Assembly (NCBI GenBank): GCA_030601865.1
Contig: JAUWAW010000001.1
Location: 46,433-110,432 of the forward strand
Direction: 5' to 3'
Source of the DNA: Candidatus Nealsonbacteria bacterium
Lineage (GTDB): Bacteria; Patescibacteriota; Minisyncoccia; Minisyncoccales; JAUWAW01
Length of the DNA: 64,000 nt
A program made the translations under genes and the position numbers. The notes beneath the pieces were generated by a model that was not told the origin of the DNA, searched no databases, and saw only the letters and a program-made list of their open reading frames with translations. This document shows positions 16,711-62,829 of the stretch, piece by piece (the stretch's first letter is position 1; the number at the start of each line of letters is the position of its first letter).

Positions 16711-16717
16711 CAGGTTC

Positions 16718-16918: not shown

Positions 16919-16923
16919 GTTCT

Positions 16924-16992
16924 TAATTCAAGATTATATATTTATATATTAGCGAATCAAGGTTCTGACGAGCGTTAGCGAGGCAGGTTCTT
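16924..16992 (-). promoter_or_regulatory. Repeated promoter-like cassette, copy upstream of secE
   Basis: TTGATT(16960-16955)-N16-TATAAT(16938-16933)-CTTGAATT; near-identical to 16653-16710 and related to 62704-62829. Confidence 0.6.
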
Positions 16993-21417: not shown

Positions 21418-21419
21418 AA

Positions 21420-21457
21420 CCCTACGAATTACGAATTATTACGAATATACGAATAAT
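21420..21457. repeat. TACGAAT-array element (family 5), 4 heptamers, directly upstream of the pheT N segment
   Basis: ccc-tacgaat-tacgaat-tat-tacgaat-a-tacgaat-aat. Confidence 0.8.
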
Positions 21458-21460
21458 TAA

Positions 21461-22303
21461 TTATTTAATTGCTAAATTTTTGTGTCTTTCCAATCCTTCT
21501 GCATAAAGCTTCTGGATTTGGGCAGCGCTCAGGGCTTGGGAATAGATGCGGACGTCGTCGATGAGGCCGTGAAACTTATCACTATCTGTAAGGCTATAAG
21601 CCCCTATTAAACACTTCTTATCTGGCGTCGCTGTTGGCAAAGAAGACTGACCACCCAAGGCTATCTGTTTACCGTCTACATATATCTTTAAATTCGTTCC
21701 ATCAGCGACGCCAACCACATAATGCCAAGTGTTTAACTCCAAAAAACCACTACCAGAATCAAGGGCACCAAAAGTCCCTTTCAATCTAATACTACCATTC
21801 AACTCAATGCTTAGGATATAGTTGTGAACACTGAAAACCGGAGACTGCCCTTTGCTCAAAATAGTTCTCCAATTATTACGTGAAATTTGCTTTATCCACG
21901 CTCCTACTGTTAATCCGTCAGTAATATCTAAAGTTGAATCAGTCCCGCAATCCACATAATTATCTATTCCGTCAAAACTCAAAGCCATGCCACCAGTGCC
22001 TCCGCCAGGAACTTCTACTCCTTGAGCCTGAACAGCTCCATAAATAGTGCCATCATTACCATAGCCAGACCTGTCAGGAGTTTTATTGCCTTCTATTGTC
22101 TCAAAGCTCCAAATACCAACTGCTTCTGCTCCTAAAGCATTCTGAATTGACTGACTGAATTGTAAGGATTTAACAAGTTCGGCTGCTCTTCTTTTTCCCG
22201 GTAAGTCCAAGGCGACCAAAACAATACTGGCCAATAACCCGATAATCGCAATGGCTACTAATAGTTCAATAACAGTAAAAGAATTTTGTGTCTGGAATTT
22301 CAT
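21461..22303 (-). CDS. Type IV pilin-like (prepilin N-terminal helix) protein with LamG / concanavalin-A-like lectin domain
   Basis: 280 aa; FTVIELLVAIAIIGLLASIVL hydrophobic helix; C-terminal LamG hallmarks (LSFDG..NYVDCG, WHYVVGV, IDDVRIYSQALSAAQI). Confidence 0.8.
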   Translation of the reverse strand: MKFQTQNSFTVIELLVAIAIIGLLASIVLVALDLPGKRRAAELVKSLQFSQSIQNALGAEAVGIWSFETIEGNKTPDRSGYGNDGTIYGAVQAQGVEVPGGGTGGMALSFDGIDNYVDCGTDSTLDITDGLTVGAWIKQISRNNWRTILSKGQSPVFSVHNYILSIELNGSIRLKGTFGALDSGSGFLELNTWHYVVGVADGTNLKIYVDGKQIALGGQSSLPTATPDKKCLIGAYSLTDSDKFHGLIDDVRIYSQALSAAQIQKLYAEGLERHKNLAIK

Positions 22304-33254: not shown

Positions 33255-34229
33255 ATGTCGTTTTCAATAGGCATTATTGGTCTGCCCAATGCGGGCAAGT
33301 CCACCCTATTTAAGGCCTTAACCAAAAAAGAGGTTGAAATCGCTCCCTATGCTTTTACCACTCGAGACCCCAATATTGGTATTGTTTCTGTTCCCGATAT
33401 AAGGTTAAAAAAAATTGCTGAAAAGATAAAGCCCCAAAAAATAACCCCCACTTTTATTAAATTTGTAGATATCGCTGGGTTGGTAAAAGGTGCCCATAAG
33501 GGAGAGGGTCTAGGCAACCAATTTTTGGCACATATTAGAAACTGCGATGCTGTGGTGGAGGTGGTGCGAGCTTTTGAAAACGCTGAAATAGAACATGTTG
33601 AGGGCTCTGTTGAGCCAAAAAGAGACATTGACATAATTAAAACAGAACTCTTGATGAAAGATTTGGAAATTTTGGAAAAATGCGGTCTTTTTCCAAAAAT
33701 TAAAGAGCAAGTATCTCAAGACAAACTAATTTCAGAAATGAATCTGTCGGAAGAAGAAAAACTTGCCATCAAAGAGTATCAATTTTTAACTGAAAAGCCC
33801 AGAGTTTTTGTTTTTAATGTATCGGGAGGCCATCCCGATAGGAGCGACGAAACGCTTTCTCTGGATCTCAAGTTAGAAGAAGAACTTTCTGAACTCTCAG
33901 AAGCAGAAGCAGAAGAATTAGGCATGGACTCCCAACTTGATAAATTAATCACCGCCTGCTACAATATCCTTGACCTGATTACTTTTTTTACTGTCACCGG
34001 GGGGAAAGAGACCAGGGCCTGGACTCTAAAAAAAGATTCAAAAGTGTTTGAAGCAGCTGGCTACGTCCATTCTGATTTTGCGGAAAAATTTATCAAAGCC
34101 GAAGTCATTCCCTGGCAACAATTAGTAGAAGCTCAATCCTGGACAGGGGCCCGTGAAAAAGGCTGGCTCAGAACAGAAGGAAAAGAGTATATAGTCAAGG
34201 ACGGAGATGTAATTGAATTCAAAATATAA
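33255..34229 (+). CDS. ychF: Ribosome-binding ATPase YchF (short form)
   Basis: 324 aa; GIIGLPNAGKSTLFKALT P-loop and C-terminal TGS-like domain (EGKEYIVKDGDVIEFK). Confidence 0.9.
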   Translation: MSFSIGIIGLPNAGKSTLFKALTKKEVEIAPYAFTTRDPNIGIVSVPDIRLKKIAEKIKPQKITPTFIKFVDIAGLVKGAHKGEGLGNQFLAHIRNCDAVVEVVRAFENAEIEHVEGSVEPKRDIDIIKTELLMKDLEILEKCGLFPKIKEQVSQDKLISEMNLSEEEKLAIKEYQFLTEKPRVFVFNVSGGHPDRSDETLSLDLKLEEELSELSEAEAEELGMDSQLDKLITACYNILDLITFFTVTGGKETRAWTLKKDSKVFEAAGYVHSDFAEKFIKAEVIPWQQLVEAQSWTGAREKGWLRTEGKEYIVKDGDVIEFKI

Positions 34230-34316
34230 CCCTACGAATTACGAATTCATACGAATATACCAATAATTATCCCTTATTAAAAATTCGTATATTCGTAAGT
34301 ATTCGTAATTCGTAGG
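34230..34316. repeat. Inverted pair of TACGAAT arrays (family 5) forming a ~27-bp-stem hairpin in the rpsF leader
   Basis: ccctacgaattacgaattcatacgaatata ... tatattcgtaagtattcgtaattcgtagg; the right end supplies the GGAG 5 nt before the rpsF ATG. Confidence 0.85.
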
Positions 34317-34321
34317 AGAAT

Positions 34322-35273
<952 letters not shown>

Positions 35274-40488: not shown

Positions 40489-41640
40489 TTAACATATAAT
40501 TATTCCGCCGCCTAAAAGTTTTTCTCCTTTATAGAAAACCACTGATTGACCCGGGGTGACGGCGCGTTGGGGCTTGGCAAAAATTACTTTACAGCGCCTG
40601 CCCGCTATTTTTTTTATTGCTTCAACTTCAATTACTGGCGAACGATACCTTATTTTCGCTTTTATCCCAACTATTGGAGTTGAACTCCAATAGTTTGAAA
40701 TCCAGTTAACATCTTTGACAATCAATTCTTTTTTTTCCAAATGTTTTTCGTTCTTGGTGACAATTAAAGCATTATTTTTGACATCCTTGTCTAAAACATA
40801 GTATGGACCTCCGGCAAGCCCTATCCCCTTTCGCTGACCAATAGTATAAAACCACAACCCCTGATGCTCGCCAATACTACGAGAACAGTTCTCGTAGTAT
40901 TCTAAGATGGGGCCAGGATTTGTTTTAAGATGTTTTCTCAAAAATTCCTCTGTTGTTTTTTTAATAAAGCAAACTTCTTGAGATTCTCTGGCTTCAAGTA
41001 CCGGCAAGTCAAACTCCTTGGCCATCTGTCTTACTTGTCTTTTGGTGTAATCCCCAATGGGAAACAAAATGTGTTTTAATTGTTTCTGGCCCAACTGCCA
41101 TAAAAAATATGATTGATCTTTTTCTTTATCTTTTGCTCTTACCAATGTGTAATTTTGTATTTTTGTGTCAGAATTCTGCGACCTGCCCGTAATGCTTCGC
41201 ATAGCGATACAGGCGGGTCGCAGGATTTTGACACAGTTTAGATCTTTATTTGTATTTTCACATTTACGCGCATAGTGGCCAGTGGCAATAAAATCTGCGT
41301 CCAAGCCCAAGGCTTTTTTCAATAAAAGTCCAAATTTTATTTCTTTGTTGCAGACCACACAAGGGTTGGGGGTTCTGCCTCTTTTATATTCTTTCAAAAA
41401 ATAATTAATGATTTTTCTCTTAAACTCTTTTCTTAAATCCAAAACCAAAAATGGAATGCCTAATTTTTTAGCAATTTTTCTGACTCTTCTCTCACTTTCT
41501 CTGAAATGAGACGACTCATAAAGTTTCATAAAAACTCCTGTTACATTAAAATTAGCCCTTTTAAGAAGGGCTGCTGCTACCGAACTATCCACGCCACCGG
41601 ACATCGCCACTATTACCTTATTTTTTCTTTTTGCTTTCAT
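40489..41640 (-). CDS. mnmA: tRNA-specific 2-thiouridylase MnmA
   Basis: 383 aa; VAMSGGVDSSVAA, NPCVVCN, ATGHYAR, KDQSYFLW, CFI; carries two palindromic elements in frame. Confidence 0.92.
   Translation of the reverse strand: MKAKRKNKVIVAMSGGVDSSVAAALLKRANFNVTGVFMKLYESSHFRESERRVRKIAKKLGIPFLVLDLRKEFKRKIINYFLKEYKRGRTPNPCVVCNKEIKFGLLLKKALGLDADFIATGHYARKCENTNKDLNCVKILRPACIAMRSITGRSQNSDTKIQNYTLVRAKDKEKDQSYFLWQLGQKQLKHILFPIGDYTKRQVRQMAKEFDLPVLEARESQEVCFIKKTTEEFLRKHLKTNPGPILEYYENCSRSIGEHQGLWFYTIGQRKGIGLAGGPYYVLDKDVKNNALIVTKNEKHLEKKELIVKDVNWISNYWSSTPIVGIKAKIRYRSPVIEVEAIKKIAGRRCKVIFAKPQRAVTPGQSVVFYKGEKLLGGGIIIC
40874..40900. repeat. Family-4 palindrome inside mnmA
   Basis: atactacgagaac-a-gttctcgtagtat; encodes YYENCSRSI (thrS copy encodes YENSSRSI). 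Confidence 0.85.
41164..41235. repeat. Family-2 element (TGTGTCAAAATCCTGCGA/TCGCAGGATTTTGACACA), expanded copy in frame inside mnmA
   Basis: tgtgtcagaattctgcgac-[34-nt insert]-gtcgcaggattttgacaca; 72 bp = 24 codons (CVKILRPACIAMRSITGRSQNSDT). Confidence 0.85.
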
Positions 41641-47028: not shown

Positions 47029-48833
47029 TAACTTCTAAGGAGTTTCAGGTATATTTCCTCGGGAATAGGGGTGCGGCCGTGTTTTTGGAGAATTTTTTTG
47101 CCTTTGCGTTGTTTGACTAAGAGTTTCTTTTTGCGGGTAAAGTCGCCGCCGTACAGGGGCGCGGTCACATCCTTGCGCAGGGCGCGGATATCCTCACGCG
47201 CGATTATTTTGCCGCCAATTTGGGCTTGAAGCGATTGGGTAAAGTTTTTTGGAGGCAGGACATCCTTTAATCTTTTGAGAAACTGACGCGCCTGCTTGCG
47301 CGCCGCGTCTTTATAAACAATGCGCGAGAAACAGGGCTTCAGTTCGCGCGAAACCAAAAACTCAAGTTTAATAAGGTCGCTTTTTTTATACTCGTCAAAT
47401 TCGTAACTAAAGGAAGCGAACCCCTTGCTAATGCTTTTCAGTTTGTCTAAAAAATCCTCAATAATCTCAGCAAGCGGCGCATAAAACTCTAAAAGCAAGG
47501 TATCTTTATCTAAAACTTGCGAGGAAATAAACTTGCCTCGTTTCTGCTCAACTAATTCATGGATTTTGCTGTTGTGTCTGGTCGGGCTGACAATGTTTAA
47601 TTTAACCCAGGACTCCGCTATATAGTCAATCTCGCCCTGGTCCGGCAGTTCTGCGGCCGAATGGACTAAAATCGGCTCTTTTTGCTTTTTTGTCTTTACC
47701 TTGAAAACAACCGAAGGAGAAGTAAGAACCACTTGGGTGCCATACTCCCGCTTTAACCTTTCCATGGTGATTTCCAGATGAAGCATACCTAAAAAGCCGA
47801 TGCGCAGTCCCCTGCCTAAATAAGGATTGCTCATAGGTTTGGCTGTGAGAGAAGTGTCGTTGAGCCGCAGTTTGTCAAAATTGGCTTTCAGGGTTTCAAA
47901 GTTTTGGCCTTGCCCTTGCCCCTGCCCCGGAAAAACATTGGCAAAAACCAATGGCTTGGGCTCTTTATAGCCAGGCAGGCGAGGACAGTCCTCGCCTGAT
48001 TTGGTTGTTATTGTCTCGCCGATTCTGACGTCTGAAACGTTTTTTATGCCCGTGGCGATGTAGCCGATTTGGCCGGCTATTAGTTTTGGCACAGGACTAC
48101 GTTGCGGTATGAAAATGCCGACTTCTCTTGTTTCGGCGCGGACTTTTTGATTGACAAAATAAATTTGGTCGCCTTTTTTGATTTCGTTGCCAAACAGCCG
48201 CACATAGGCAATTACTCCCTGAAAATTGTCGTAAATTGAATCAAAAACCAGGGCTTTTAATACTCCTCCGCCCTCTGTTTTTGGCTGCGGCGCCTGCTTT
48301 ATCAACGCTTCAAGAACTTTCTCTATATTCTCGCCTGTTTTGGCGGAAATAGTTAAAATTTCCCCTGAATCAATACCTAAAAGATTGGCTAATTCCTGCT
48401 TAACTTTTTCTAATTGCTCCTCGCTCGGACAAACATCTATTTTATTGATAACCGGTATTATTTTCAAACTCTGCGCCTGCGCCAGGCGCAGATTAGCCAG
48501 GGTCTGTGCCTGAATGCCTGAAACCACGTCAACCAATAAAATAACACATTCAACAGCGGCCAAAGACCGTTCTACTTCATAGGAAAAATCCATATGGCCA
48601 GGCGTGTCAATCAAGTTTAATTGGTACTTGCGGCCGGCCAGACCATACTCCATTGCACAGGGCTGCATCTTGATAGTGATGCCGCGCTCTCTTTCCAAAT
48701 CCATCTGGTCCAAAACCTGTTCGCGCATCTGCTCTTTCTTCAAGGTGTTGGTAATTTCCAAAAACCGGTCAGCCAGAGTTGATTTGCCGTGGTTTATATG
48801 CGCGATTATAGAGAAATTTCGTATATTTCCCAT
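47028..48833 (-). CDS. lepA: Elongation factor 4
   Basis: 601 aa; IRNFSIIAHINHGKSTLADR G1 motif, DTPGH, NKID, LepA C-terminal domain; visibly more GC-rich than its neighbours. Confidence 0.95.
   Translation of the reverse strand: MGNIRNFSIIAHINHGKSTLADRFLEITNTLKKEQMREQVLDQMDLERERGITIKMQPCAMEYGLAGRKYQLNLIDTPGHMDFSYEVERSLAAVECVILLVDVVSGIQAQTLANLRLAQAQSLKIIPVINKIDVCPSEEQLEKVKQELANLLGIDSGEILTISAKTGENIEKVLEALIKQAPQPKTEGGGVLKALVFDSIYDNFQGVIAYVRLFGNEIKKGDQIYFVNQKVRAETREVGIFIPQRSPVPKLIAGQIGYIATGIKNVSDVRIGETITTKSGEDCPRLPGYKEPKPLVFANVFPGQGQGQGQNFETLKANFDKLRLNDTSLTAKPMSNPYLGRGLRIGFLGMLHLEITMERLKREYGTQVVLTSPSVVFKVKTKKQKEPILVHSAAELPDQGEIDYIAESWVKLNIVSPTRHNSKIHELVEQKRGKFISSQVLDKDTLLLEFYAPLAEIIEDFLDKLKSISKGFASFSYEFDEYKKSDLIKLEFLVSRELKPCFSRIVYKDAARKQARQFLKRLKDVLPPKNFTQSLQAQIGGKIIAREDIRALRKDVTAPLYGGDFTRKKKLLVKQRKGKKILQKHGRTPIPEEIYLKLLRS
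47906..47930. repeat. Hexanucleotide-type repeat encoding (GQ)4 inside lepA
   Basis: ggccttgcccttgcccctgccccgg; encodes PGQGQGQGQ. Confidence 0.8.
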
Positions 48834-50434
48834 TAATATTCTTCTTCAAAGATTTGGGCGGTGAAAGTGTAGAGGTCAATATCTTCTTCTTTCCAGCAGT
48901 CCCAGGGCAGACCGACTTTTTGAAAGCAAAGTTCTCCCATAAATTTTTCTAAATCCCAATTATTGTCAGTAGCTACTTGGGGCAGAAAAACACCATTTCT
49001 CAAGCCCTTTCTAATTTGCACGCCGTGTTTGCCAATCTCAATTCCCTGCCAATTATCAATTTTCTCTAAGGGACTCAAAACCGAAATTTCATAGTCAAGC
49101 TCACCAAGTTCATCCTCTCCCACAGGATAAAATCTTTTATCCTGGGTGGCAGCCGCAATGGCCATTTGAGAAACAACTTGATACAGAGGTATGTCAGTGG
49201 GTGAAAAACGGCCAATGCAGCCCCGTAGCTGGCTCTGCTTCTTTAAAGTAACAAAAGCACCCAAGTTTTGATTTAATATGGATTCTTCAACTTGAAATTC
49301 TGGAATTTTACCTTCTTTGACAAAAGTTTCAACTGAATTCTTAGCGATTTCCAAAAGTTTTTCTTGCTCTGTTTTCTTTAATAAATGACTCTGTCTTGGT
49401 CCAAAAAAGCCAATGGCTGCATAGCCAACCACTTGCGATTTATCACCTATGGGCACGTCTCCGGAATTGGCATATTTTAATAATTTAATTTCTTCAGCAG
49501 CCAATTCTTTGGCTACTAACATGATTGTTTTGATAGCATCTTCTGCGCAAACAAAAGTTACTGCTCCAGGAATATTCTCTTTTTCCAAGTCCTGAATTGT
49601 TTTTTCTAACTCCCCTACCCTACCGGTTAAAATGGCTTCAATGGTTTTGCTATCTGCCTGTTGAGCATCACCATAGCTAGGATAATGCGACAAATCAGAA
49701 CTGGCAATCAGTAAAATATTCTTACCTCTGATATTTTTAACAATGGCTTGAGCTAAAATTTTGTAATCTTCTTCTGGGCTGTTGCCCAAAATAATGGGTA
49801 CAATCCGTGGTACGTGCACGGACAAAGGAGATCCTTCGGCCTTCGGCCTCAGGATGACTTGCAAAAAAGGTAATTCCACCTCAAGGGAATGCTCTCTTTG
49901 ATGAACACTCTCTCTGAAAAAAATTCTTTCGTTTTCTGCAATAATTTTTTCAGCTAATTGAGAATCTATTTCTACTTCTCCTAAGGGAGTTTTATAAAAA
50001 CCTCGTGGGAAAATAGAAATACCTTCAAATCTCTCATAATGGCTGTTGCCAATAAGAATCACCGTAGCAAATTGGTTCAAATCGTGACGATCGTCATAAC
50101 TTGAACCACCCATCAGTTGCTTAAAGCCGTAGGCGGCCACGGGGCCAGAAAATGGATAGCCAGCATGGGGCAGAACTAAAGCAAAAATCTCGCCTTCGGT
50201 TTCTGGCGGACTTGCCTTTTCCAAAAATTGGTCAATCATTTTCTCTAACTCCTCAGGGTCTCCAGGATAAAATTGTCCAGCCACTGCCGGCTGCCGAATT
50301 ATTTTTTCTTCTTTTTCAAAAACGTCTGAAACCATAGCTTTTTGAGAAATATCTTCCCCTCCCTTAAATATTAAAAGTATACTAATCGCACCAACAACAA
50401 AAATTAATAAAGCTATTATTAGAACTTTCTTCAT
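48833..50434 (-). CDS. AmmeMemoRadiSam system fusion: protein B (Memo-like) + protein A (AMMECR1), with N-terminal membrane anchor
   Basis: 533 aa. TM helix at residues ~3-23. Memo motifs PAVAGQFYPG, LPHAGYPFSGPVAA, SSDLSHYP. AMMECR1 motifs GAFVTLKK..LRGCIGRF, DKRFYPV, ISVLSP, GVFLPQVA. Confidence 0.85.
   Translation of the reverse strand: MKKVLIIALLIFVVGAISILLIFKGGEDISQKAMVSDVFEKEEKIIRQPAVAGQFYPGDPEELEKMIDQFLEKASPPETEGEIFALVLPHAGYPFSGPVAAYGFKQLMGGSSYDDRHDLNQFATVILIGNSHYERFEGISIFPRGFYKTPLGEVEIDSQLAEKIIAENERIFFRESVHQREHSLEVELPFLQVILRPKAEGSPLSVHVPRIVPIILGNSPEEDYKILAQAIVKNIRGKNILLIASSDLSHYPSYGDAQQADSKTIEAILTGRVGELEKTIQDLEKENIPGAVTFVCAEDAIKTIMLVAKELAAEEIKLLKYANSGDVPIGDKSQVVGYAAIGFFGPRQSHLLKKTEQEKLLEIAKNSVETFVKEGKIPEFQVEESILNQNLGAFVTLKKQSQLRGCIGRFSPTDIPLYQVVSQMAIAAATQDKRFYPVGEDELGELDYEISVLSPLEKIDNWQGIEIGKHGVQIRKGLRNGVFLPQVATDNNWDLEKFMGELCFQKVGLPWDCWKEEDIDLYTFTAQIFEEEY
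49828..49858. repeat. Family-1 element copy in frame inside the Memo domain
   Basis: gagatccttcggccttcggcctcaggatgac; encodes (minus strand) VILRPKAEGSP. Confidence 0.85.
50074..50107. repeat. Family-3 element (TTCAAATCGTnnCGATCGTCATAA..TGAA) in frame inside the Memo domain
   Basis: ggttcaaatcgtgacgatcgtcataacttgaacc; encodes SSYDDRHDLNQ. Confidence 0.8.
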
Positions 50435-51595: not shown

Positions 51596-51609
51596 AAAAC
51601 CCTTTTATT

Positions 51610-51645
51610 TGTGTCAAAATCCTGCGATCGCAGGATTTTGACACA
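51610..51645. repeat. Family-2 element, perfect 36-bp palindrome, intergenic
   Basis: tgtgtcaaaatcctgcga|tcgcaggattttgacaca; contains GCGATCGC; identical to 56120-56155. Confidence 0.95.
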
Positions 51646-51651
51646 GTTTTA

Positions 51652-54749: not shown

Positions 54750-56117
54750 TTGATGAACGGAAATTCCTCAAATGAATTGCCAGACAAGATGCCCCCGCAG
54801 AGCGTGGAGGCGGAGCAATGCCTTTTGGGCTGTTTAATGCTGGACAAAAACGCTGTTATCAAGGTGGCTGATTTTTTAGAGCCACGGGATTTTTATAAAA
54901 GAACGCATCAGCAAATCTATCAAGCTGCTATTGACCTCTTTGAAAAAAGAGAGCCGATTGATGTCTTAAGTTTATCCACTCGCTTAAAAGAAAAAGGAGG
55001 ATTAGATGAAATTGGCGGTAATACTTATTTAACCCAGTTGGTTAATTCTGTGCCTACGGCCAGCAATATTTTAAATTATGCTAAAATTGTGCAGCGCAAA
55101 AGAATTTTGCGTGACCTCATTTCTGCTTCTCAGGAAATAGGCGGGATGGGCTATAAAGAAGCGGATGACGTGGATGAGCTTCTTGACCAGGCGGAAAGAA
55201 GAATTTTCAGTATTGCTCAAAAAAGCTTAAGTCAAAGATTTGTGCTAGTCAAAGATACTTTAGAAGAAGCTTTTGAGAGATTTGATACGCTTTCCAAAGA
55301 AGGAGCCAAGCTGCGAGGCATTCCCACCGGCTTTTCTGACCTTGATAATATTTTAGCCGGCTTGCAAAAATCAGACCTCATAATTTTGGCCTCACGCCCC
55401 AGTTTGGGTAAATCAAGCATGGCCGTGGACATTGCCCGGTATGTGGCCGTGCATGAAAAAATCCCGGTGGGTATATTTAGTTTGGAAATGTCCAACGACC
55501 AGATTGTGGATAGGTTAATTGCAGCTCAAGCCAATGTTGACCTTTGGAGATTGAGAACGGGTCGGCTTTCAAGTGAGGGAGAAAATAATGATTTTGTCAG
55601 AATTCGCAAAGCACTTGATGTTCTTTCCTTAGCCCCTATTTTTATTGACGATGCAGCCACTTCTAATATTTTGCAAATGAGGGCCATGGCCAGAAGATTG
55701 CAGGCAGACCAGGGCTTAGGTTTAATCATTGTTGATTATTTGCAGCTTATGGAACCGAGAAATCCCAATGTCAACATGGTGCAGCAAGTAACTGAAATCT
55801 CTAAGTCCTTGAAAGGGCTGGCCCGAGAACTCCAGATACCGGTTTTAGCCCTCTCGCAATTATCACGTGCTGTTGAACAAAGAACACCCCAGATTCCAAG
55901 ATTATCCGACCTTCGTGAAAGCGGCTCGCTGGAGCAGGATAGCGACGTGGTTTTGTTTATACATCGTGAGGATCGCTACAAGCCCGACACGCCTAGGAAA
56001 AATATCGCTGATATACTTATTGCCAAACACAGGAATGGACCCATCGGCAAAATAGAATTATATTTTGATGAACAAAGGGTCACTTTCCGCAACCTGGAGA
56101 AAAAACAACAAGAGTAA
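54750..56117 (+). CDS. dnaB: Replicative DNA helicase DnaB
   Basis: 455 aa; PPQSVEAEQCLLGCLM N-terminal domain, Walker A SRPSLGKSS, IIVDYLQLM, SQLSR. No intein. Likely start is the ATG at 54753. Confidence 0.95.
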   Translation: MMNGNSSNELPDKMPPQSVEAEQCLLGCLMLDKNAVIKVADFLEPRDFYKRTHQQIYQAAIDLFEKREPIDVLSLSTRLKEKGGLDEIGGNTYLTQLVNSVPTASNILNYAKIVQRKRILRDLISASQEIGGMGYKEADDVDELLDQAERRIFSIAQKSLSQRFVLVKDTLEEAFERFDTLSKEGAKLRGIPTGFSDLDNILAGLQKSDLIILASRPSLGKSSMAVDIARYVAVHEKIPVGIFSLEMSNDQIVDRLIAAQANVDLWRLRTGRLSSEGENNDFVRIRKALDVLSLAPIFIDDAATSNILQMRAMARRLQADQGLGLIIVDYLQLMEPRNPNVNMVQQVTEISKSLKGLARELQIPVLALSQLSRAVEQRTPQIPRLSDLRESGSLEQDSDVVLFIHREDRYKPDTPRKNIADILIAKHRNGPIGKIELYFDEQRVTFRNLEKKQQE

Positions 56118-56119
56118 AC

Positions 56120-56155
56120 TGTGTCAAAATCCTGCGATCGCAGGATTTTGACACA
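56120..56155. repeat. Family-2 element, perfect 36-bp palindrome between dnaB and recR
   Basis: Identical to 51610-51645. Confidence 0.95.
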
Positions 56156-56160
56156 AAATT

Positions 56161-56754
56161 ATGTATCCAAATTCTATTCAAAAACTTATAGATTTGTTCT
56201 CCAAATTTCCCACGGTGGGTCCTCGGACGGCCTCGCGTTTTGTTTTTTATTTAATGTATCTTCCCAAAGAAAAAATTGAAGAACTCGTTCAAGCCATCTC
56301 TAATTTTAAAAACAAGATTAAACTTTGTCAGCTTTGTTTCAATCCCTTGGAAGGCGAAGGAGGCCTTTGCAAAATTTGTTCTGACCCTACCAGAGACAAA
56401 ACCTTGCTCTGTATTGTTGAAAAAGAAACTGATTTGCAAGCCATAGAAAAAATTAAAAAATATAAGGGTCTTTATTTTATTTTGGGAGGCACGGTTTCTA
56501 ATCTGAAACCAGAAGCCCTAAAAAAACTACGGCTCAAAGAATTAGAAGAACGGGTTAAAAGTCCTGAAATCCAGGAAGTTATCCTGGCAACCAATTCTAC
56601 TACCGAGGGTCAAGCCACGGCTTTATATTTACAAAGATTATTAAAACCCTTCAATAAAAAAATCGTCCAACTCGGACGAGGATTACCTATGGGCGGCGAA
56701 TTAGAGTATGCTGATGAAGAAACACTCTCTTCGGCTCTGGAGAGCAGAAGGTAA
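56161..56754 (+). CDS. recR: Recombination protein RecR
   Basis: 197 aa; HhH start, Cys4 zinc finger CQLCFNP...CKICSD, Toprim domain. Confidence 0.93.
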   Translation: MYPNSIQKLIDLFSKFPTVGPRTASRFVFYLMYLPKEKIEELVQAISNFKNKIKLCQLCFNPLEGEGGLCKICSDPTRDKTLLCIVEKETDLQAIEKIKKYKGLYFILGGTVSNLKPEALKKLRLKELEERVKSPEIQEVILATNSTTEGQATALYLQRLLKPFNKKIVQLGRGLPMGGELEYADEETLSSALESRR

Positions 56755-56756
56755 AA

Positions 56757-56883
56757 CACCAATAACCAAGAAACAATAACCAAACAAATTTCAATAACCA
56801 ATAACCAATTTCCAAACTGTTTGGTTATTGATGTTTGAAGATTGGTTATTGTTTGGTGATTGTATCTTGTATCTTGGTTATTT
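56757..56883. repeat. ~130-bp long-hairpin repeat, copy 2
   Basis: Between convergent recR and rplU; overlaps the last codons of rplU; same orientation as copy 1. Confidence 0.85.
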
Positions 56884-57172
56884 CTACTTCTGTAAAGGGC
56901 TGTCTATGCCCTGTTTTTTTCTTATACCGTGTTTTAGGTTTGTACTTAAAAACAATTACTTTTTTGCCTTTGCCCTGTTTCAAAACTTTGCCCATAACTT
57001 TGGCTCCTTTAACCAAAGGAGTGCCAATCTCCACTTTTTTATTCTTCTCCACTAATAAAACCTGGTCAAAGATTACTTCTTTGCCCTCTTTCTCCTCTAT
57101 TTTCTCTATTTTGATTTTATCCCCGGGAGCAACAAGATATTGTTTGCCTCCGGTTTTAATGACAGCTAACAT
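56846..57172 (-). CDS. rplU: 50S ribosomal protein L21
   Basis: 108 aa; MLAVIKTGGKQYLVAPGD...GHRQPFTEVEI; no rpmA follows. Confidence 0.92.
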   Translation of the reverse strand: MLAVIKTGGKQYLVAPGDKIKIEKIEEKEGKEVIFDQVLLVEKNKKVEIGTPLVKGAKVMGKVLKQGKGKKVIVFKYKPKTRYKKKTGHRQPFTEVEITKIQDTITKQ

Positions 57173-57174
57173 AA

Positions 57175-58212
57175 TTATTCTAAACTGGCAGGTCTTTCTA
57201 TTTGTTTAACTTCCATTTTGGACTGGCCGCCAGTTACCTTGAGCACATCTTTATCAATCTTGCCAAATTCTTTGTAAGCATTATTATAGCTGTTTATCGT
57301 GGTACCAAGATGAGTGCCCAGTTTCTCCATATAATTATTGTAGTTTGCCAAGTGGCGGCCGAGCATCTCTACTCTTTTGCGGATTTCCTTGGCCGACTTC
57401 TCAATTTGAAACGCTCTCAAGCCCTGCAAAATTGTCTGTAAATAAGCGTAAAAAGAAGTGGGAGAAACAATATGAACGTGCTTTTCTCGCACTGCATACT
57501 CAATCAAATCCCGGGTGTTGCTTTTAATCGCTCCAATCTTATTAACCAATAAATCATAATAAACTGCTTCAGCTGGAATAAACATAAAAGCAAATCCCAA
57601 AGTGCCTTCCCGGGGTCTGATATACTTGGCTGTTTCTTCAATGCGGTTTTTCAAATCCTGTCTGAAGGTTTTTTCTAATTGTTCTCGTCGGCCCGGGTCT
57701 TTTTCTTCAATAATTCTATTATAATTTTCTAAGGAAAACTTAGAGTCAATGGGAATAATTTTATCTTCTCTAACAAATATGACCGCATCAACAATTTGAC
57801 CGTCTTTAAATTGATACTGCATTTGATACTGACTGGGGCTGAAAACATTTTTTAATAACTCTTCCAAATAATATTCTCCTAAAATGCCACGCTGCTTAGG
57901 ATTTTTTAAGATATTTTCCAAGGACTGCAGCTGCTCAGCAAAACCAACCACTTGCTTGTTGGTTTCATCAAGCTTGGTCAACTTTTCTGTTACATCGCGG
58001 ATAATTTTAGCGCTCTGACTAAATTGCTCTTGGATGGCTTTACCGGATTCAGACAATCTATTATCCAGAACTTGATTAAGATTATTAAGTTGCTGCTGCA
58101 GCATTAACAATGACTGAGTTTCCTTTTCTGGCCTTCTTTTTAATAGCAAAAAAATAACCATGCCCAATCCTATCAAAAGAACCAAAAAAAATATCAAAAA
58201 AAAGTAATCCAT
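57175..58212 (-). CDS. rmuC: DNA recombination protein RmuC
   Basis: 345 aa; N-terminal TM, coiled coil, RmuC nuclease-like domain (RGILGEYYLEELL, PIDSKF). Confidence 0.85.
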   Translation of the reverse strand: MDYFFLIFFLVLLIGLGMVIFLLLKRRPEKETQSLLMLQQQLNNLNQVLDNRLSESGKAIQEQFSQSAKIIRDVTEKLTKLDETNKQVVGFAEQLQSLENILKNPKQRGILGEYYLEELLKNVFSPSQYQMQYQFKDGQIVDAVIFVREDKIIPIDSKFSLENYNRIIEEKDPGRREQLEKTFRQDLKNRIEETAKYIRPREGTLGFAFMFIPAEAVYYDLLVNKIGAIKSNTRDLIEYAVREKHVHIVSPTSFYAYLQTILQGLRAFQIEKSAKEIRKRVEMLGRHLANYNNYMEKLGTHLGTTINSYNNAYKEFGKIDKDVLKVTGGQSKMEVKQIERPASLE

Positions 58213-58280
58213 TAGATTACTTTAGCATGAGAAATAAAATGAAGCAAGGAGGGGTGTCAACTCAATACTCCAAGCAAAAT

Positions 58281-58311
58281 CTTCAAATCGTTGCGATCGT
58301 CATAATCTGAA
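58281..58311. repeat. Family-3 element, copy downstream of the PaaX/Cas2-like gene
   Basis: cttcaaatcgttgcgatcgtcataatctgaag; 24-nt core identical to 58953-58976 and in the same orientation. Confidence 0.85.
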
Positions 58312-58316
58312 GTATG

Positions 58317-58931
58317 TTATTTTTCCTCCTTTAGTAAGTTAAGTATTTCTTCTGGTCGGTCAACTTTATCAACAGTGAAAATGAAAATATACTTCCTTAG
58401 TCCAGCATCATCTATTTCTTTTATGAAACTGGCAGGAATTGGATATTTACCGACATAGACACTTTTTTGAAGTTGTTGGAACTGCATCAAAAGAAGTTCT
58501 TGACGAATAATCCTTCTCCAATGTTTTCTTTTTTCAGGAATATCAAAAATCACTATTCTTAGTTTTCCGTCCCAAGGTTTTTTTAGAATTAAATATCTGT
58601 TTTCAACATAACTCACAACTTTCTTGCCTTTGTCAGTTAAATGATAAATTTTTTGTTTTGGGTCTTTGCTGATTAAACCATCCTCTATTAAACGATAGAG
58701 GTTTGTCTCTATTGTCTTTTTCTTAAAAGTCAGTTCTTTGTAAGATTTGACACCAAACATCTGCTTCATCAATCCAAAGGCAGGATAAGAGTCGGGCAAT
58801 CCTCTTAAAAAGTCCTTTCCTCCTTCTTTGAGGGAAAACAAAATATAGGAGGCAGCATTCAATCCCTGATTAAATAATCTTTGGGCAAAGTTTCTTTTTT
58901 TAAGTTGAAAAAAATATCTTTTTGTCGGCAT
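58317..58931 (-). CDS. PaaX-like regulator: winged-helix domain + Cas2-like (ferredoxin-fold) domain
   Basis: 204 aa; LYRLIEDGLISKD...YHLTDKGKK (wHTH); WDGKLRIVIFDIPEKRKHWRRIIRQELLLMQFQQLQKSVYV (Cas2/PaaX-C-like). Confidence 0.65.
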   Translation of the reverse strand: MPTKRYFFQLKKRNFAQRLFNQGLNAASYILFSLKEGGKDFLRGLPDSYPAFGLMKQMFGVKSYKELTFKKKTIETNLYRLIEDGLISKDPKQKIYHLTDKGKKVVSYVENRYLILKKPWDGKLRIVIFDIPEKRKHWRRIIRQELLLMQFQQLQKSVYVGKYPIPASFIKEIDDAGLRKYIFIFTVDKVDRPEEILNLLKEEK

Positions 58932-58947
58932 AATAGGTTATTATTAC

Positions 58948-58985
58948 TTCTTCAAATCGTTGCGATCGTCATAAGTTGAAGGAAG
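58948..58985. repeat. Family-3 element, copy upstream of the PaaX/Cas2-like gene
   Basis: cttcttcaaatcgttgcgatcgtcataagttgaagga. Confidence 0.85.
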
Positions 58986-59004: not shown

Positions 59005-59052
59005 AATTTCAACGGCATAAAATCTCAACGGCATAGAATTTCAACGGCAACG
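59005..59052. repeat. Three tandem 16-bp direct repeats with core TCAACGGCA
   Basis: Cores at 59009, 59025 and 59041 (exact 16-bp phase); they span the stop codon of the antiporter gene and lie upstream of the PaaX-like gene. Confidence 0.85.
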
Positions 59053-59984
59053 AAAATGATGTAAAGGAAAAGTAAAACCAAGGCTTCTTTTTTGGTGATT
59101 TTTTGGCCGGTGCGAACGATAATTAAGAAAAATATGGCGGCTATGACCAGGAAAATCCGGGCGATAGCAAAAGGAGAAAAGTCCGTAATCTCAATGGGAC
59201 AAATCAAACAAACCACGCCCAAGACCAAGGTGGCAGGCACAATAATAGAACCCATTAGATTTCCCAGGACCATCCAATTCTGACCTCTCTTAGCAGAAAC
59301 AATGGCAAAATAGATTTCGGGTAAGGCATTAACCAAGCCGATGATTAAAATTCCCATTATGGGAATTGATAAGTTAAAGCTCTCAAAAAAATAAATACTG
59401 CTATTAACCAAACCTTCAGCTGCTAAAAACAGAAGGGCTAAAGCTAAAACCATTTTCCCTAAGTCCTTGACAAAGGTCTTAAACTCTCTGATAATTCCTT
59501 CGTCCGCATCTTCATAAACTTTTTTGAATCTTTCTTTTTTAGAAAAAAGCCAAAAAATATAAAGAGTAAAAGCTGAAAGCAAAACTAAGCCATCTCCCCT
59601 GCCCAATTTTCCATCTAAGATTAAAATTAAGGGCAAGATGGCCACCCCGGCGGTAAAAAGAGTGCTGGTCTGAACCATGCGACTGGGGGCAGGGAGAGTG
59701 GCTCCGGCAACCAAAACTGCCAAAGCCACAGCTAAAGTCAAATCAACCACATTCCCTCCCATTATGTCGCCCAAAGAAAGCTGAGGAATCTTATGCAAGG
59801 CAGCATTTATGCCAACAAAAAGATTGGGCAGAGAACCAACCACCGCCATAACAAAGAAAGCCAGCACAAACTCCCGCCAACCCAAATATTTAGCCATTCT
59901 TATTAAAGCGCTGACCAACCACGAGCCCGCACAAAAAAGCATCAGACACGAACCTATGAAAATAAAGATATAAAGCCAAATCAT
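59025..59984 (-). CDS. Ca2+/Na+ (CaCA family) antiporter
   Basis: 319 aa; about 10 TM helices; alpha-repeat motifs GSLPNLFVG and VNALPEIYFA. Confidence 0.8.
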   Translation of the reverse strand: MIWLYIFIFIGSCLMLFCAGSWLVSALIRMAKYLGWREFVLAFFVMAVVGSLPNLFVGINAALHKIPQLSLGDIMGGNVVDLTLAVALAVLVAGATLPAPSRMVQTSTLFTAGVAILPLILILDGKLGRGDGLVLLSAFTLYIFWLFSKKERFKKVYEDADEGIIREFKTFVKDLGKMVLALALLFLAAEGLVNSSIYFFESFNLSIPIMGILIIGLVNALPEIYFAIVSAKRGQNWMVLGNLMGSIIVPATLVLGVVCLICPIEITDFSPFAIARIFLVIAAIFFLIIVRTGQKITKKEALVLLFLYIIFVAVEILCR

Positions 59985-62602
59985 ACTGTTTTTTTAGTGA
60001 TGAAAAACCATTTAGTGATTTCAATCAGTAATATATTGAACAATCCCAAGCCGAGAACCAATTGCCAATCAAAAAAGTTCAGGGGCACAGTTTTTAAGAG
60101 TGTTTGTAAAACCGGCAGATAGAGGGCGGCAATGAGGGCAATTACTCCAAAAGTCCAGGCAAAGATTAAAAATTTATTAGAAAAAGGATTTATATGCCAA
60201 AGATTTCTTCTTAAACTTTTGCAAGAGAAAATATAAAACATTGAGTCAATGGTTAAACCAGCAAAGATTATGGATCTAATATGGGGAATTTCATAACCAG
60301 AATACTTTATTAACCAAAAAAATAATCCCAAAAGCAAAATATCAGTTATCAGTCCAATAATAAAAATCAAGGTCTTCATTTCTTTGGTTAAAAGAGGGGT
60401 ATTGTGACCCTGGGGTTTTTGCTTCATTATGTCTTTTTCCTTTGGTTCAAATGCCAAACAAAGACTAAGTGGACCATCTTCAATCAGATTGACCCACAAA
60501 ATTTGGACAGCTAAAATCGGTAAGGGCCAACCTAAAACAAGACTCACCCCAATCAAAATTACCTCGGTAAAACTATCCGAAAGTAAATAGGTAATAACCT
60601 TGCGGATGTTGTCAATAATCACTCTCCCCTCCTCAACTGCCGCCACAATAATATTAAAATTATCAGTCAGCAGAACCAAATCAGAAACCTCTTTGGCCAC
60701 ATCTGTGCCTGAGCCCAGGGCCACGCCAATGTCGGCTTTCTTTAAAGCCGGAGCATCATTGATGCCGTCTCCGGTCATAGCCACCACCTCTCCTCTCGCC
60801 TGCCAGGCCTCAATAATCCTCATTTTGTGCTGAGGTTCAGCTCGAGCGTAAATCTCAATATGTTTTACTTTCTTTTGGAACTCCTCGTCTGACATTGCAT
60901 CCAGGTCCTTGCCCTCAATAATGTTTTCTTTTTTTGTTCTCAAGCCAATTTCTTTAGCCACGGCTTTAGCCGTAAGCAGATGGTCGCCAGTAACTAAAAT
61001 AGGTCTCATGCCTGCTTTTCGGCAAAGATTGATTGCTTCTTTGGCTTCTTTTCGCAAAGGGTCTCTCAATCCAATAAAACCAACAAAGGTTAAATTGTTA
61101 ACTGCCAATTTTTTTGTTTTTTTGTAAGCCACGGCTATCACCCTTAATCCTTGGCTGGTTAAATCCTCCAATTTTTTAAATAATTCTGTCTCCTTTTTTT
61201 TAGTTAATTTGGAAAGGGAAAGAATTTTTTCTGGAGCTCCACAAATATAAAGAATATTGCCTTGCTTTCCTTGGTACAAGGTAGCGATAAATTTATTCTG
61301 AGGATTAAAAGGAATTTCATCAATTTTGGGAAATTCTTCTTCCAAATCTGGTTTTCTTATTCCTATCTCTGCCCCGGCCAAAATCAAGGCTCTGTCAGTT
61401 GGTCTACCCCTAACCTTCCATAAGGGATAGGGTTTTTGAGGATTCTCAATAAAGGCTTCGTTACAAAGAACGGCAATGGTTACGGCTAAAACTTGGTCTG
61501 GGTCTTTTTTAGTTTTAAAAACTTCCGGCCATTTCTTTTTTTCCTCCTCCGCAATCTCTTTTCTTAGAGTTGAGGTTTTAGCCACAACCATTTTGCCTTC
61601 TGTTAAGGTTAAGGTTTTGTCGGTGCAAATTGTTGAAGTGCTGCCCAGGGTTTCCGCGGCCACCAATTTTCTGACCAGACCCTTCTTCTTTAAAATCCTT
61701 TCCATGCCCAAGGCTAAAATAACGGTCATGGCCACGGGCAGGCCTTCGGGGATGGCCGCTACTGCCACGGCCACCGCGGTTTCAAACATTTCCAAGAATT
61801 TCCTTTCCCTTAAGAGCCCTCCTAAAAAAATTAAAATACAAACCAAGGCAATGACCACCCCAATTATTTTACTGAGCCGAGCTAATCTCTTTTGAAGAGG
61901 AGTTTTTTCTTCTTTGGTCTCTTTAACTAAAATGGCGACTTTACCTATTTCGGTACCACACCCAATAGCCGTCACCACTGCCTTGGCTTTCCCATCTTGC
62001 ACCAAACATCCCATATAGACCATATTATCCCGGTCAGCTACGGGAGTGTTCTTTGGTAAAATTTTGAGCGTTTTTTGTGCTGCCAGCCACTCTCCGGTCA
62101 AAGGGGCCTCGTTTATTTTTAAATCACGACTCTCAAGCAATCTTGCATCAGCCGGAACCTTGTTTCCGGCAGAGAGCATGATAATATCGCCTTTAACCAG
62201 CGCCTTGGAACCAATTTCTTTCTGATGGCCATCTCTAATGACTTGGGCTTCAATCTTAACTACTTTCTTCAGTTTTCTTAAAGCACCAGTGGCTTTATTT
62301 TCCTGCCAAAAACCAACCACAGTGTTTAAAACCACAGCCCCAAAAATAACAATGGCATCGGTAAATTTTTGAAAAAGTAAAACTATTATTCCTGCCACCA
62401 CCAAAATATAAATCAAAGGACTCTTGAACTGGGTCAAAAATATTCTTAGTTTTGACAAGGGTTTTTCTTCAGGAAGAACATTGGAACCTGACTTTTTTCT
62501 TCTCTCCCTTACTTCGTCCTCAGTTAAACCCTGCTCAATGTCTGAGTTTAATAACTTTAATACTTTTTGCCTTGAAAGACTGTGCCAACTATTGTTAGCC
62601 AT
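59981..62602 (-). CDS. P-type (type II, Ca2+-transporting-like) cation ATPase
   Basis: 873 aa; N-terminal cation-ATPase domain, TGE-type actuator region, phosphorylation site ICTDKTLTLT (canonical DKTGT has Gly), TGDHLLTA, MTGDGINDAPALKKADIG. Confidence 0.9.
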   Translation of the reverse strand: MANNSWHSLSRQKVLKLLNSDIEQGLTEDEVRERRKKSGSNVLPEEKPLSKLRIFLTQFKSPLIYILVVAGIIVLLFQKFTDAIVIFGAVVLNTVVGFWQENKATGALRKLKKVVKIEAQVIRDGHQKEIGSKALVKGDIIMLSAGNKVPADARLLESRDLKINEAPLTGEWLAAQKTLKILPKNTPVADRDNMVYMGCLVQDGKAKAVVTAIGCGTEIGKVAILVKETKEEKTPLQKRLARLSKIIGVVIALVCILIFLGGLLRERKFLEMFETAVAVAVAAIPEGLPVAMTVILALGMERILKKKGLVRKLVAAETLGSTSTICTDKTLTLTEGKMVVAKTSTLRKEIAEEEKKKWPEVFKTKKDPDQVLAVTIAVLCNEAFIENPQKPYPLWKVRGRPTDRALILAGAEIGIRKPDLEEEFPKIDEIPFNPQNKFIATLYQGKQGNILYICGAPEKILSLSKLTKKKETELFKKLEDLTSQGLRVIAVAYKKTKKLAVNNLTFVGFIGLRDPLRKEAKEAINLCRKAGMRPILVTGDHLLTAKAVAKEIGLRTKKENIIEGKDLDAMSDEEFQKKVKHIEIYARAEPQHKMRIIEAWQARGEVVAMTGDGINDAPALKKADIGVALGSGTDVAKEVSDLVLLTDNFNIIVAAVEEGRVIIDNIRKVITYLLSDSFTEVILIGVSLVLGWPLPILAVQILWVNLIEDGPLSLCLAFEPKEKDIMKQKPQGHNTPLLTKEMKTLIFIIGLITDILLLGLFFWLIKYSGYEIPHIRSIIFAGLTIDSMFYIFSCKSLRRNLWHINPFSNKFLIFAWTFGVIALIAALYLPVLQTLLKTVPLNFFDWQLVLGLGLFNILLIEITKWFFITKKTV

Positions 62603-62664: not shown

Positions 62665-62703
62665 CAAAAAAAACAAACTGTAACAAAATCAAATTTCTTT
62701 TAT

Positions 62704-62829
62704 TTCAAGAATATATGTTTATACATTAGCGAATCAAGGTTCTTGAGCGAAGCGAGAGGTTCTTAATTCAAGAATATGTGATTATTCCTTAGCGAATCAA
62801 GGTTCTCGAGCGAAGCGAGAGGTTCTTAA
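62704..62829 (-). promoter_or_regulatory. Two tandem 63-bp copies of the promoter-like cassette
   Basis: 62704-62766 and 62767-62829. Each reads on the minus strand AGAACC-N14-AGAACC-TTGATT-N16-TATATT/CATATT-CTTGAA. Copy B supplies the last 9 codons of the murF-like ORF. Confidence 0.6.

Follow-up and report, generated by a model that had tools for sequence, protein, structure and literature searches.

Genes for a family of small PaaX-like proteins, here termed mini-PaaX, lie between two copies of a palindrome centered on CGATCG, and this palindrome-gene-palindrome bracket is conserved in nearly every mini-PaaX locus that was examined. The arrangement was studied in a stretch of 64,000 nucleotides of DNA (the window) and across the protein family, and the observations are the family-wide bracket, the covariation of the palindrome arms, insertion polymorphisms and the fold of the protein. 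The palindromes are probably the cognate sites of the enclosed protein, with which they would form a relocatable, REP/RAYT-like module in bacteria of the candidate phyla radiation (CPR). No description of a palindrome/mini-PaaX module was found in the searchable literature, and these data suggest that a protein and a mobile palindromic repeat are partners in a way not described before.

A first-pass annotation of the window had reported two same-orientation copies of a repeat with an identical 24-nucleotide core flanking one gene, as well as a third copy with two substitutions that lies in frame in a Memo-AMMECR1 fusion. These reports were confirmed. The core, TTCAAATCGTTGCGATCGTCATAA, matched the plus strand of the window exactly at 58282-58305 and 58951-58974, and with two mismatches at 50076-50099, while the number of matches expected by chance was 0 (100 dinucleotide-preserving shuffles). 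With flanks included, these family A copies occupy 58280-58312, 58949-58981 and 50074-50106, or about 33 nucleotides each. The repeats are imperfect palindromes of approximately 34 to 38 nucleotides with CGATCG at their center; on the minus strand, the 58949-58981 copy reads CTTCAACTTATGA-CGATCG-CAACGATTTGAAG. The palindromes, the gene and its neighbors, all of which are on the same strand as the mini-PaaX gene, are arranged as follows.

59981-62602, minus strand: P-type ATPase
59025-59984, minus strand: Na/Ca exchanger
58949-58981, no strand assigned: upstream family A palindrome, 17 nucleotides short of the ATG of the mini-PaaX gene
58317-58931, minus strand: mini-PaaX gene, 204 amino acids, the sole open reading frame between both exact copies
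58280-58312, no strand assigned: downstream family A palindrome, starting 5 nucleotides past the mini-PaaX stop codon, with the same orientation and 24-nucleotide core as the upstream copy
57175-58212, minus strand: RmuC
56846-57172, minus strand: L21

As RNA, the two flanking copies folded no better than shuffled sequences (z of about -1). Rfam gave no match at the repeats and two tRNAs only in the whole window, and a scan for consensus promoters and terminators was uninformative at the repeats, with no terminator called there.

Orthologues with 70, 68 and 62% identity to the window protein were found in other contexts (ligA/ftsW, a lactamase-like gene/gyrA and a T4SS-like cluster), and each of the three had CGATCG palindromes of 34 to 45 nucleotides on both sides, with different arms. 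A profile-based scan of metagenome contigs added 80 loci (34 to 74% identity), and de-replication resulted in 63 distinct loci (35 to 74% identity) that represent about 58 species-level groups and varied gene contexts. The bracket was judged in the 44 of these 63 loci that had at least 150 nucleotides on each side. A CGATCG palindrome was present within 330 nucleotides on both sides in 39 of the 44, and the other five had flanking palindromes with the cores CATATG, CGGCCG or a mutated CGATAG; in L068, the arms of the downstream palindrome had decayed. Distant members of the family obeyed the bracket as well, including P0187, which is 43% identical across half of its length, and a protein from Daviesbacteria (31%). 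The cargo between the palindromes belonged to the same gene family in every locus, and the genes downstream of the bracket varied by locus (rmuC, ftsW, a giant open reading frame, SpoU).

The density of CGATCG was 3.2 per kb within 330 nucleotides of the gene versus 0.10 per kb elsewhere. At least 10 of 16 arm positions were complementary at 104 of 116 near-gene CGATCG sites, as compared with 0.5% of random centers, and the background density of palindromes was one per approximately 22 kb. In L004 and L007, the two flanking sites were the only CGATCG sites in 11.4 and 8.2 kb, respectively. The distance from the upstream palindrome to the start codon, 17 nucleotides in the window, was 5 to 35 nucleotides in many loci. 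Tandem upstream copies in L008 were 101-nucleotide duplications with 99% identity. A scan for the exact family A core returned a single chance match in genome contigs (on an Acidobacteriota contig) and none in metagenome contigs; because arm sequence is lineage specific, a scan of this kind cannot find relatives. Since the bracket is kept throughout the family, the repeats are best regarded as partner sites of the mini-PaaX gene rather than as generic cassette boundaries. No relative was found that carries the regulator without the repeats, and the repeats proved to be associated with gene boundaries.

Covariation was measured in an alignment of all 104 distinct near-gene CGATCG sites, with no selection for symmetry. 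Opposite arm positions paired in 85% of cells, as compared with 51.8% in shuffles (0 of 500 reached 85%) and 36 to 47% with a slid partner, and 16 of 16 arm pairs had changes on both sides. Arm sequences are genome specific yet stay complementary, and conservation is seen in the core and in the outer ACAAA box. The half-site profile consists of T at -13, ACAAA at -11 to -7, TT at -6 and -5 and free positions at -4 to -1, followed by CGATCG, so that the conserved stretch from -13 to -5 is T.ACAAATT and the variable stretch is -4 to -1. The outer ACAAA-type boxes are about 27 bp apart, center to center. Mismatches were concentrated at -8 to -1 and were rare in the outer box. On the sense strand there were 47 G.T and 50 A.C mismatches, with no G-U bias, and because these two classes are equal, they give no sign that a sense-strand RNA hairpin is under selection. 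At least five T residues in the next 8 nucleotides followed 23% of the downstream copies. Variant cores were still palindromic; in L044, CGGCCG and CGATCG cores were found in palindromes that are otherwise identical. The palindromic variant cores, the scarcity of T-tracts and the balance of G.T and A.C mismatches fit a hairpin loop less well than the two-fold symmetry of duplex DNA.

Mini-PaaX matched Pfam PaaX_M (PF20803, the Cas2-like central domain of PaaX) at 2.8e-15, and its CRISPR_Cas2 score of 22.8 was under the Pfam cut-off of 23.8. An AlphaFold2 model (pLDDT 78) contained a winged helix and, after it, a ferredoxin-like domain; the top Foldseek match of this model was E. coli PaaX (8a39, E 5.5e-6), with Rv0674 and then many Cas2 structures as further matches. 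Mini-PaaX is predicted by this model to be a winged helix-turn-helix joined to a Cas2-like (PaaX_M) dimerization domain. The chain stops about 12 residues past the Cas2-like fold and is without the C-terminal effector-binding helical domain of PaaX. Assignment as a PaaX equivalog was rejected: NCBIfam TIGR02277 scored 35.5 bits versus a cut-off of 264.55, and residues 65 to 169 were the only ones that matched. No paa genes were found near mini-PaaX, the neighbors being rmuC, the Na/Ca exchanger and other housekeeping genes.

Searches of defense-system and phage libraries gave generic winged-helix and Cas2 matches only. No recombinase or transposase domain was recognized in mini-PaaX, nor were HUH/Y1 (IS200-like) motifs, and Pfam, NCBIfam and fold searches returned winged-helix, PaaX_M and Cas2 matches only. 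Residues W120-D121, F129-D130, R139, Q155, S157-V158 and G161-K162 were invariant in 45 orthologues. Comparison of the recognition helix with the outer box revealed no clear pattern of covariation. By profile search, the family comprises 2,485 clusters (50% identity) at an E value of 1e-10 or lower, and no mini-PaaX relative was found in viral contigs. The gene was assembled within contigs of 20 to 120 kb, apparently as a single copy, and the 64-kb window holds no paralogue.

Three relatives of the window (L091, L093 and L095), found through their RmuC proteins (80 to 82% identity), have the same gene order, with the ATPase, the Na/Ca exchanger, RmuC and L21 on one strand and RecR and DnaB on the opposite strand. 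In all three, the exchanger gene lies directly next to rmuC, and the spacer of 63 to 181 nucleotides between them contains neither the mini-PaaX gene nor a palindrome. Alignment to these relatives delimited the extra DNA in the window.

58262-58976, minus strand: about 715 bp of extra DNA relative to the syntenic relatives L095, L091 and L093, containing both palindromes and the gene

These boundaries are approximate, as the relatives are about 20% diverged. The insert sits between the stop codon of the Na/Ca exchanger and a conserved GTTGAC, the putative -35 box of rmuC. Because the syntenic relatives are without both the gene and the palindromes, the unit is an insertion in the lineage of the window. 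The suggestion that the repeats delimit a mobile cassette is upheld to this extent, in that the unit is inserted relative to three relatives, but the repeats are partner sites of the gene and not generic boundaries. It had also been asked whether one copy of the repeat is left at an empty site; none was. With no leftover repeat at the empty sites, simple excision between repeats is not what separates these genomes, and a unit that entered at an older solo site would have required two steps. At the window junctions, the divergence of about 20% from the closest empty sites prevented a target-site duplication from being defined.

Other loci differ in the placement of the unit relative to a block of a pilin-like gene and ligA, with the unit on the right side in L004 and L021 versus the left side in L032 and L051. 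Two Logan contigs (L002 and L003) carry an identical protein and cassette from the same strain, with no informative variation. The genes ligA, ftsW and gyrA, which are neighbors in the orthologues, are not in the 64-kb window; the empty-site comparison for the unit was made at the exchanger-rmuC spacer.

The window contains eight CGATCG sites, as compared with 3.65 expected, and six of them are the centers of long palindromes with three families of arms. Restriction avoidance of CGATCG was rejected, there being two non-palindromic sites versus 3.65 expected in total. The palindrome load of the window is 6 to 7 per 64 kb.

50088, 58294 and 58963: centers of family A
51625 and 56135: centers of family B
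9438: center of family C
50074-50107, minus strand: solo family A palindrome, GGTTCAAGTTATGACGATCGTCACGATTTGAACC, lying in frame within the Memo domain and adding a net 10 codons
51608-51649, no strand assigned: solo family B perfect palindrome, TGTGTCAAAATCCTG-CGATCG-CAGGATTTTGACACA, between a 104-amino-acid gene and the AmmeMemoRadiSam radical-SAM gene
56116-56157, no strand assigned: second solo family B palindrome, in the dnaB-recR spacer, and not in that spacer in L095 and L091
41164-41240, minus strand: split family B palindrome (..CTGCGA / 36 nucleotides / TCGCAG..), broken at the center of the core
9422-9459, no strand assigned: solo family C palindrome, TTATGTAAATAACTCA-CGATCG-TGAGTTATAAACATTA, occupying the gap between two convergent stop codons

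The last four of these elements were not listed in the first-pass annotation. Several further families of intergenic palindromes are also present in the window.

The Memo-AMMECR1 fusion is encoded at 48833-50434 on the minus strand, and its in-frame family A copy is translated as GGSSYDDRHDLNQ. This palindrome constitutes a 10-residue insertion that was missing in 29 of 29 homologues (54 to 69% identity) and in human MEMO1; in the DNA, 14 codons of the window correspond to 4 in the relative L102. Hairpin quality differed among the family A copies, the Memo copy being a nearly perfect palindrome and the best of the three (-18.2 kcal/mol, z -3.75), in contrast to the two intergenic ones. The copy at 51608-51649 is considered an insertion because the same two genes, which lie upstream of the Memo operon, overlap in L102. 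The split element is in frame within mnmA (40489-41640), which encodes about 30 residues more than solved MnmA structures. No CGATCG palindrome was found in L091, L093, L095 and L102, which amount to about 51 kb in all. The solo palindromes, among them the in-frame copies in Memo and mnmA, are likewise insertions. Over all loci, 14 of 15 solo copies were intergenic, in a tally that leaves out the split element in mnmA, and solo copies often had the same arms as the flanking copies (L059, L061).

The two flanking copies were compared in 47 loci in which both were present. By best relation, 5 pairs were both perfect palindromes, 17 were direct repeats, 11 were inverted repeats and 14 were ties. 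In L057, both copies are perfect palindromes but differ in their arms, a|a' and b|b'. In L014 and L021 the copies are a|b' and b|a', each the exact or near-exact reverse complement of its partner, and the flanks form exact 38-nucleotide terminal inverted repeats; this pattern would be expected from a crossover at the center, or from terminal inverted repeats. In the window and L061 the same hybrid is present twice, a|b' and a|b', as would be expected after inversion between two different palindromes. Together with the palindrome that is split and the L044 core, which changed symmetrically, the arm swaps suggest that DNA is broken and rejoined at the center of the palindrome.

The palindromes are taken to be binding sites because the logic of their boxes is like that of the E. 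coli PaaX operator and because the upstream copy abuts the start codon. From the association of gene and palindrome and the analogy with PaaX, a truncated PaaX-type dimer would bind each palindrome through its two outer ACAAA-type boxes and the central CGATCG, and binding at the upstream copy could mediate autoregulation of the mini-PaaX gene. Breakage and rejoining at the center, whether by mini-PaaX or by a host enzyme, would yield hybrid arms, relocations and solo copies. The palindrome-gene-palindrome unit appears to be a conserved, single-copy element of mainly vertical descent that is able to relocate. Its palindromes would also disperse singly, mostly to intergenic spacers and in rare cases to in-frame positions within genes. 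In the window, the unit was inserted between the Na/Ca-exchanger gene and rmuC.

A more conventional reading is that mini-PaaX is a repressor that regulates itself and a small regulon; the palindromes would then be operators only, with the downstream and solo ones serving neighboring genes and with no mobility beyond normal genome rearrangement. The PaaX-like fold, the match of the wide-spaced inverted boxes to the E. coli PaaX operator, the placement of the upstream palindrome within 5 to 35 nucleotides of the start codon in many loci and the intergenic location of 14 of 15 solo copies are in keeping with this reading, as is the autoregulation of PaaX itself (PMC9493321). However, the downstream copy is found as universally as the upstream one, though the downstream genes vary by locus; the variable inner arms remain complementary; the sites are insertions of 30 to 40 nucleotides, two of them within coding sequences; and arm swaps between the flanking copies are reciprocal. 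Plain regulation does not account for three features: the insertions, the universal downstream site, which a plain regulator would not need, and inner arms that are unconserved yet complementary, as binding alone would not preserve complementarity at positions that the protein does not contact. A plain repressor of this kind is considered unlikely. For the preferred reading, it is a difficulty that the window has three arm families, A, B and C, versus one mini-PaaX gene, and specificity of one protein for one family is putative.

Mini-PaaX could itself be the mobilizing enzyme, with winged helices on the outer boxes and Cas2-like domains that cut CGATCG, as a new type of transposase or recombinase. 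An aspartate at the Cas2 catalytic position (D130 of the FDIP motif) and other residues of the Cas2 domain are invariant in the 45 orthologues, the signatures of exchange map to the core, the cargo is always a mini-PaaX gene, and the exact terminal inverted repeats of L014 and L021 resemble those of insertion sequences. Against this, mini-PaaX is without homology to any known recombinase, its gene is apparently single-copy in long contigs, unlike active insertion sequences, and D130 may be structural; we regard this proposal as rather improbable. It is likewise unlikely, though conceivable, that mini-PaaX is a new kind of site-specific DNA-rearranging enzyme that clamps the outer boxes of the 38-bp palindrome, breaks and rejoins DNA at CGATCG, moves the cassette and seeds solo copies across CPR genomes, including in frame in essential genes. 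Such an enzyme would make the module a REP/RAYT-like replicator based on the Cas2 fold. The palindromes might also work at the RNA level, as hairpins (terminators, processing sites or stabilizers) that insulate the transcript, as had been raised in the first-pass annotation. Perfect copies would form hairpins of 16 to 17 bp, and the family C copy fills the gap between convergent genes. Yet the local flanking copies fold as weakly as shuffled sequences, G.T and A.C mismatches are equal, T-tracts follow 23% of downstream copies only, the variant cores are palindromic, which a loop would not need, Rfam gave no match, and such hairpins are about 30-fold rarer away from the mini-PaaX gene. Insulation by hairpins is accordingly given very little weight. 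Finally, two copies of a common intergenic repeat might lie beside a short gene by chance, the window having several other families of intergenic palindromes, but the recurrence of the bracket in about 58 species-level groups, against a background of one palindrome per approximately 22 kb, and the enrichment of CGATCG near the gene refute this explanation and leave it a negligible probability.

The preferred reading, a protein with its own relocatable sites, concerns a large family (approximately 2,500 clusters at 50% identity) that is locked to a specific palindrome in almost all of the loci examined. In CPR bacteria (Patescibacteria), whose genomes are small and streamlined, repetitive and mobile DNA is believed to be scarce, and here a palindromic element has entered the spacers of essential genes as well as coding sequences. 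If mini-PaaX only binds its sites, an uncharacterized family gains a testable operator and a regulator that travels with its own sites. If mini-PaaX or a partner moves the palindromes, they would be a second, independent long-lived intragenomic replicator of the REP/RAYT type; this might reveal an enzymatic Cas2 fold outside CRISPR and would bear on the recruitment of Cas2 into adaptation modules. The bracket also provides a simple signature with which to annotate mini-PaaX genes and to spot in-frame palindrome insertions that inflate CPR proteins.

Several known systems share features with this module. Two candidates were rejected. A CRISPR adaptation module was dismissed on the sub-threshold Cas2 score, the absence of cas Pfam domains in the called neighbor genes and the tandem copies in L008, which are not spacers; an intrinsic terminator was dismissed because none was called at the repeats, the fold z is about -1 and T-tracts follow 23% of downstream copies. 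The CGATCG core is over-represented in a specific setting in cyanobacteria, as HIP1 (GCGATCGC) and in connection with CGATCG methyltransferases (PMC4390886). HIP1 shares the palindromic CGATCG core with the mini-PaaX palindromes, but it is an 8-mer that is hyper-abundant genome-wide, whereas here CGATCG matters only as the center of palindromes of about 38 bp. Rickettsia palindromic elements are similar in that palindromic repeats lie in frame in conserved genes and leave the gene intact, as in Memo and mnmA here. Those elements are about 100 to 150 bp long and are not known to have an associated gene; the mini-PaaX palindromes, in contrast, are 34 to 77 nucleotides long and are tied to one protein family.

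Like an integron cassette, the mini-PaaX unit has a single promoter-proximal open reading frame between imperfect palindromic sites and is present or absent between conserved neighbors. An integron cassette was rejected, as there is no integrase, attI or array and the cargo is always of the same gene family; no integrase, recombinase or transposase Pfam domains were found among the called genes of loci with gene lists. In addition, attC sites are bottom-strand hairpins, whereas the mini-PaaX sites are dyad-symmetric palindromes of the double-stranded-DNA type. As regards insertion sequences and MITEs, exact 38-nucleotide inverted ends were observed in L014 and L021 and direct ends in 17 loci; no transposase domain is present, and assemblies contain the gene as a single copy.

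E. coli PaaX binds TGATTC(N27)GAATCA, a pair of inverted hexamers far apart, and represses its own promoter, and its Cas2-like fold is annotated only as a dimerization motif (PMC9493321). Mini-PaaX resembles it in the order of an N-terminal winged helix and a Cas2-like dimerization domain and in an operator made of distant inverted boxes. The two differ in length (204 amino acids versus 305 in the 8a39 chain) and in the spacing of the boxes (about 27 bp for the mini-PaaX palindromes versus 33 bp for PaaX, center to center), and for mini-PaaX the spacer, too, is a palindrome and has a conserved core, and the sites are mobile and lie on both sides of the gene.

The REP/REPIN-RAYT systems (REPtrons) of Proteobacteria are built around a short, single-copy gene that is inherited vertically and typically has palindromic repeats on its flanks; these repeats are lineage specific, dispersed and mostly intergenic (PMC3337134). 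Mini-PaaX is likewise flanked in all evaluable loci, with genome-specific arms, and solo copies exist. The proteins differ, RAYT being an HUH/Y1 transposase related to IS200 and mini-PaaX having a winged helix and a Cas2-like fold. One end of a REP reportedly bears a GTAG or CGTC tag, whereas the mini-PaaX palindromes have a central CGATCG and outer ACAAA boxes. REPs also number hundreds per genome, as compared with 6 to 7 palindromes per 64 kb here, and the host here belongs to the CPR. The REP/RAYT pair is the closest functional analogue of the mini-PaaX/palindrome module.

Hairpin repeats are abundant in the small genome of the source organism. Besides the CGATCG-centred palindromes that bracket the mini-PaaX gene, the window contains the following elements:

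41164-41240: split palindrome of arm family B, within the minus-strand gene mnmA (40489-41640)
56754-56884 and 15952-16089: inverted-repeat element of ~130 nt, rich in AATAACCAA and present twice
4141-4189, 21411-21461 and 34221-34323: intergenic repeat/palindrome family CCTACGAATTACGAATT...
5681-5714 and 40872-40905: intergenic repeat/palindrome family CTACGAGAACAGTTCTCGTAG
142-198, 16649-16711, 16923-16985 and 62700-62825: motifs related to the G+C-rich GAGGCGAAGCCGAAG type

In the mnmA element, the CGATCG core is broken at its centre by a unique 36-nt segment, and the full 77 nt fold into a single extended hairpin (-25.9 kcal/mol as DNA, z -8.6). The element is translated in frame and lengthens MnmA by ~30 residues as compared with solved structures. 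The Memo-AMMECR1 fusion, which bears an in-frame family-A palindrome, was found to contain a second lineage-specific in-frame insertion, AEGSPLSVHVP (~49805-49845), which is present in 0 of 29 homologues. The DNA of this insertion, CTGAGGCCGAAGGCCGAAGGATC..., is similar to the G+C-rich repeat CTGAGGCGAAGCCGAAGGATC at 7968-7988 and 8482-8502. These sites lie within an open reading frame of 652 aa (7461-9419) that contains a G+C-rich, 26-nt inverted repeat pair of the GAGGCGAAGCCGAAG type (7968-7993 / 8477-8502), with 483 nt between the copies.

Comparison with L095, a syntenic relative that lacks both the mini-PaaX gene and the palindromes, revealed differences at further sites. The gap between the convergent genes recR and rplU is 91 nt in the window, where it is filled by the AATAACCAA-rich copy at 56754-56884, but only 27 nt in L095; this copy appears to be a further hairpin insertion that belongs to a separate family. 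The Na/Ca-exchanger gene carries at its 3' end, adjoining the cassette junction, three tandem copies of a 16-nt unit (59005-59052; ATGCCGTTGARATTYT on the minus strand), as compared with a single copy in L095, and this triplication alters the exchanger C-terminus (AVEILCR* versus AVEIFLK*). The DnaB of L095 (881 aa; L095:3052-5697) contains an intein with a LAGLIDADG domain, whereas the window DnaB is 455 aa long and has no intein.

Other loci carrying mini-PaaX family members displayed further palindrome and repeat arrangements. In several of these (L008, L016 and L039), palindromes are present in two to three tandem copies upstream of the gene. At L051:4821-5751, two distinct palindromes lie on each side in the order P1 P2 gene P1 P2, such that a two-palindrome unit of ~110 nt occurs as a direct repeat around the gene. 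Upstream of the orthologue's upstream palindrome in L007, ATTCAAATTTATTTT occurs seven times (L007:1060-1445), mostly at a spacing of 25 nt, a pattern that is iteron-like; a run of N is also present near these copies.

The module of L008 is bracketed by GGTTCGTTTTGGGA-type palindromes, and a solo palindrome in the same genome (L008:1934) is of the GTATCGTTTTAGGA type. Palindromes of the GTATCGTTTTAGGA type bracket another member of the family, with 62% identity, on a separate contig (L016:4726-5660), and both modules are present among the records of one JGI metagenome (Ga0265594). Individual genomes may harbour two mini-PaaX paralogues, with a separate arm family for each.

Many palindrome copies start with GTTTCAAA, end with TTTGAAAC and are 36-38 nt long (e.g., L004:5943-5980), a size and termini reminiscent of some CRISPR repeats. 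Since no CRISPR arrays and no cas1 were seen, this resemblance may be coincidental; here, the likeness to CRISPR repeats is found beside a protein with a Cas2 fold.
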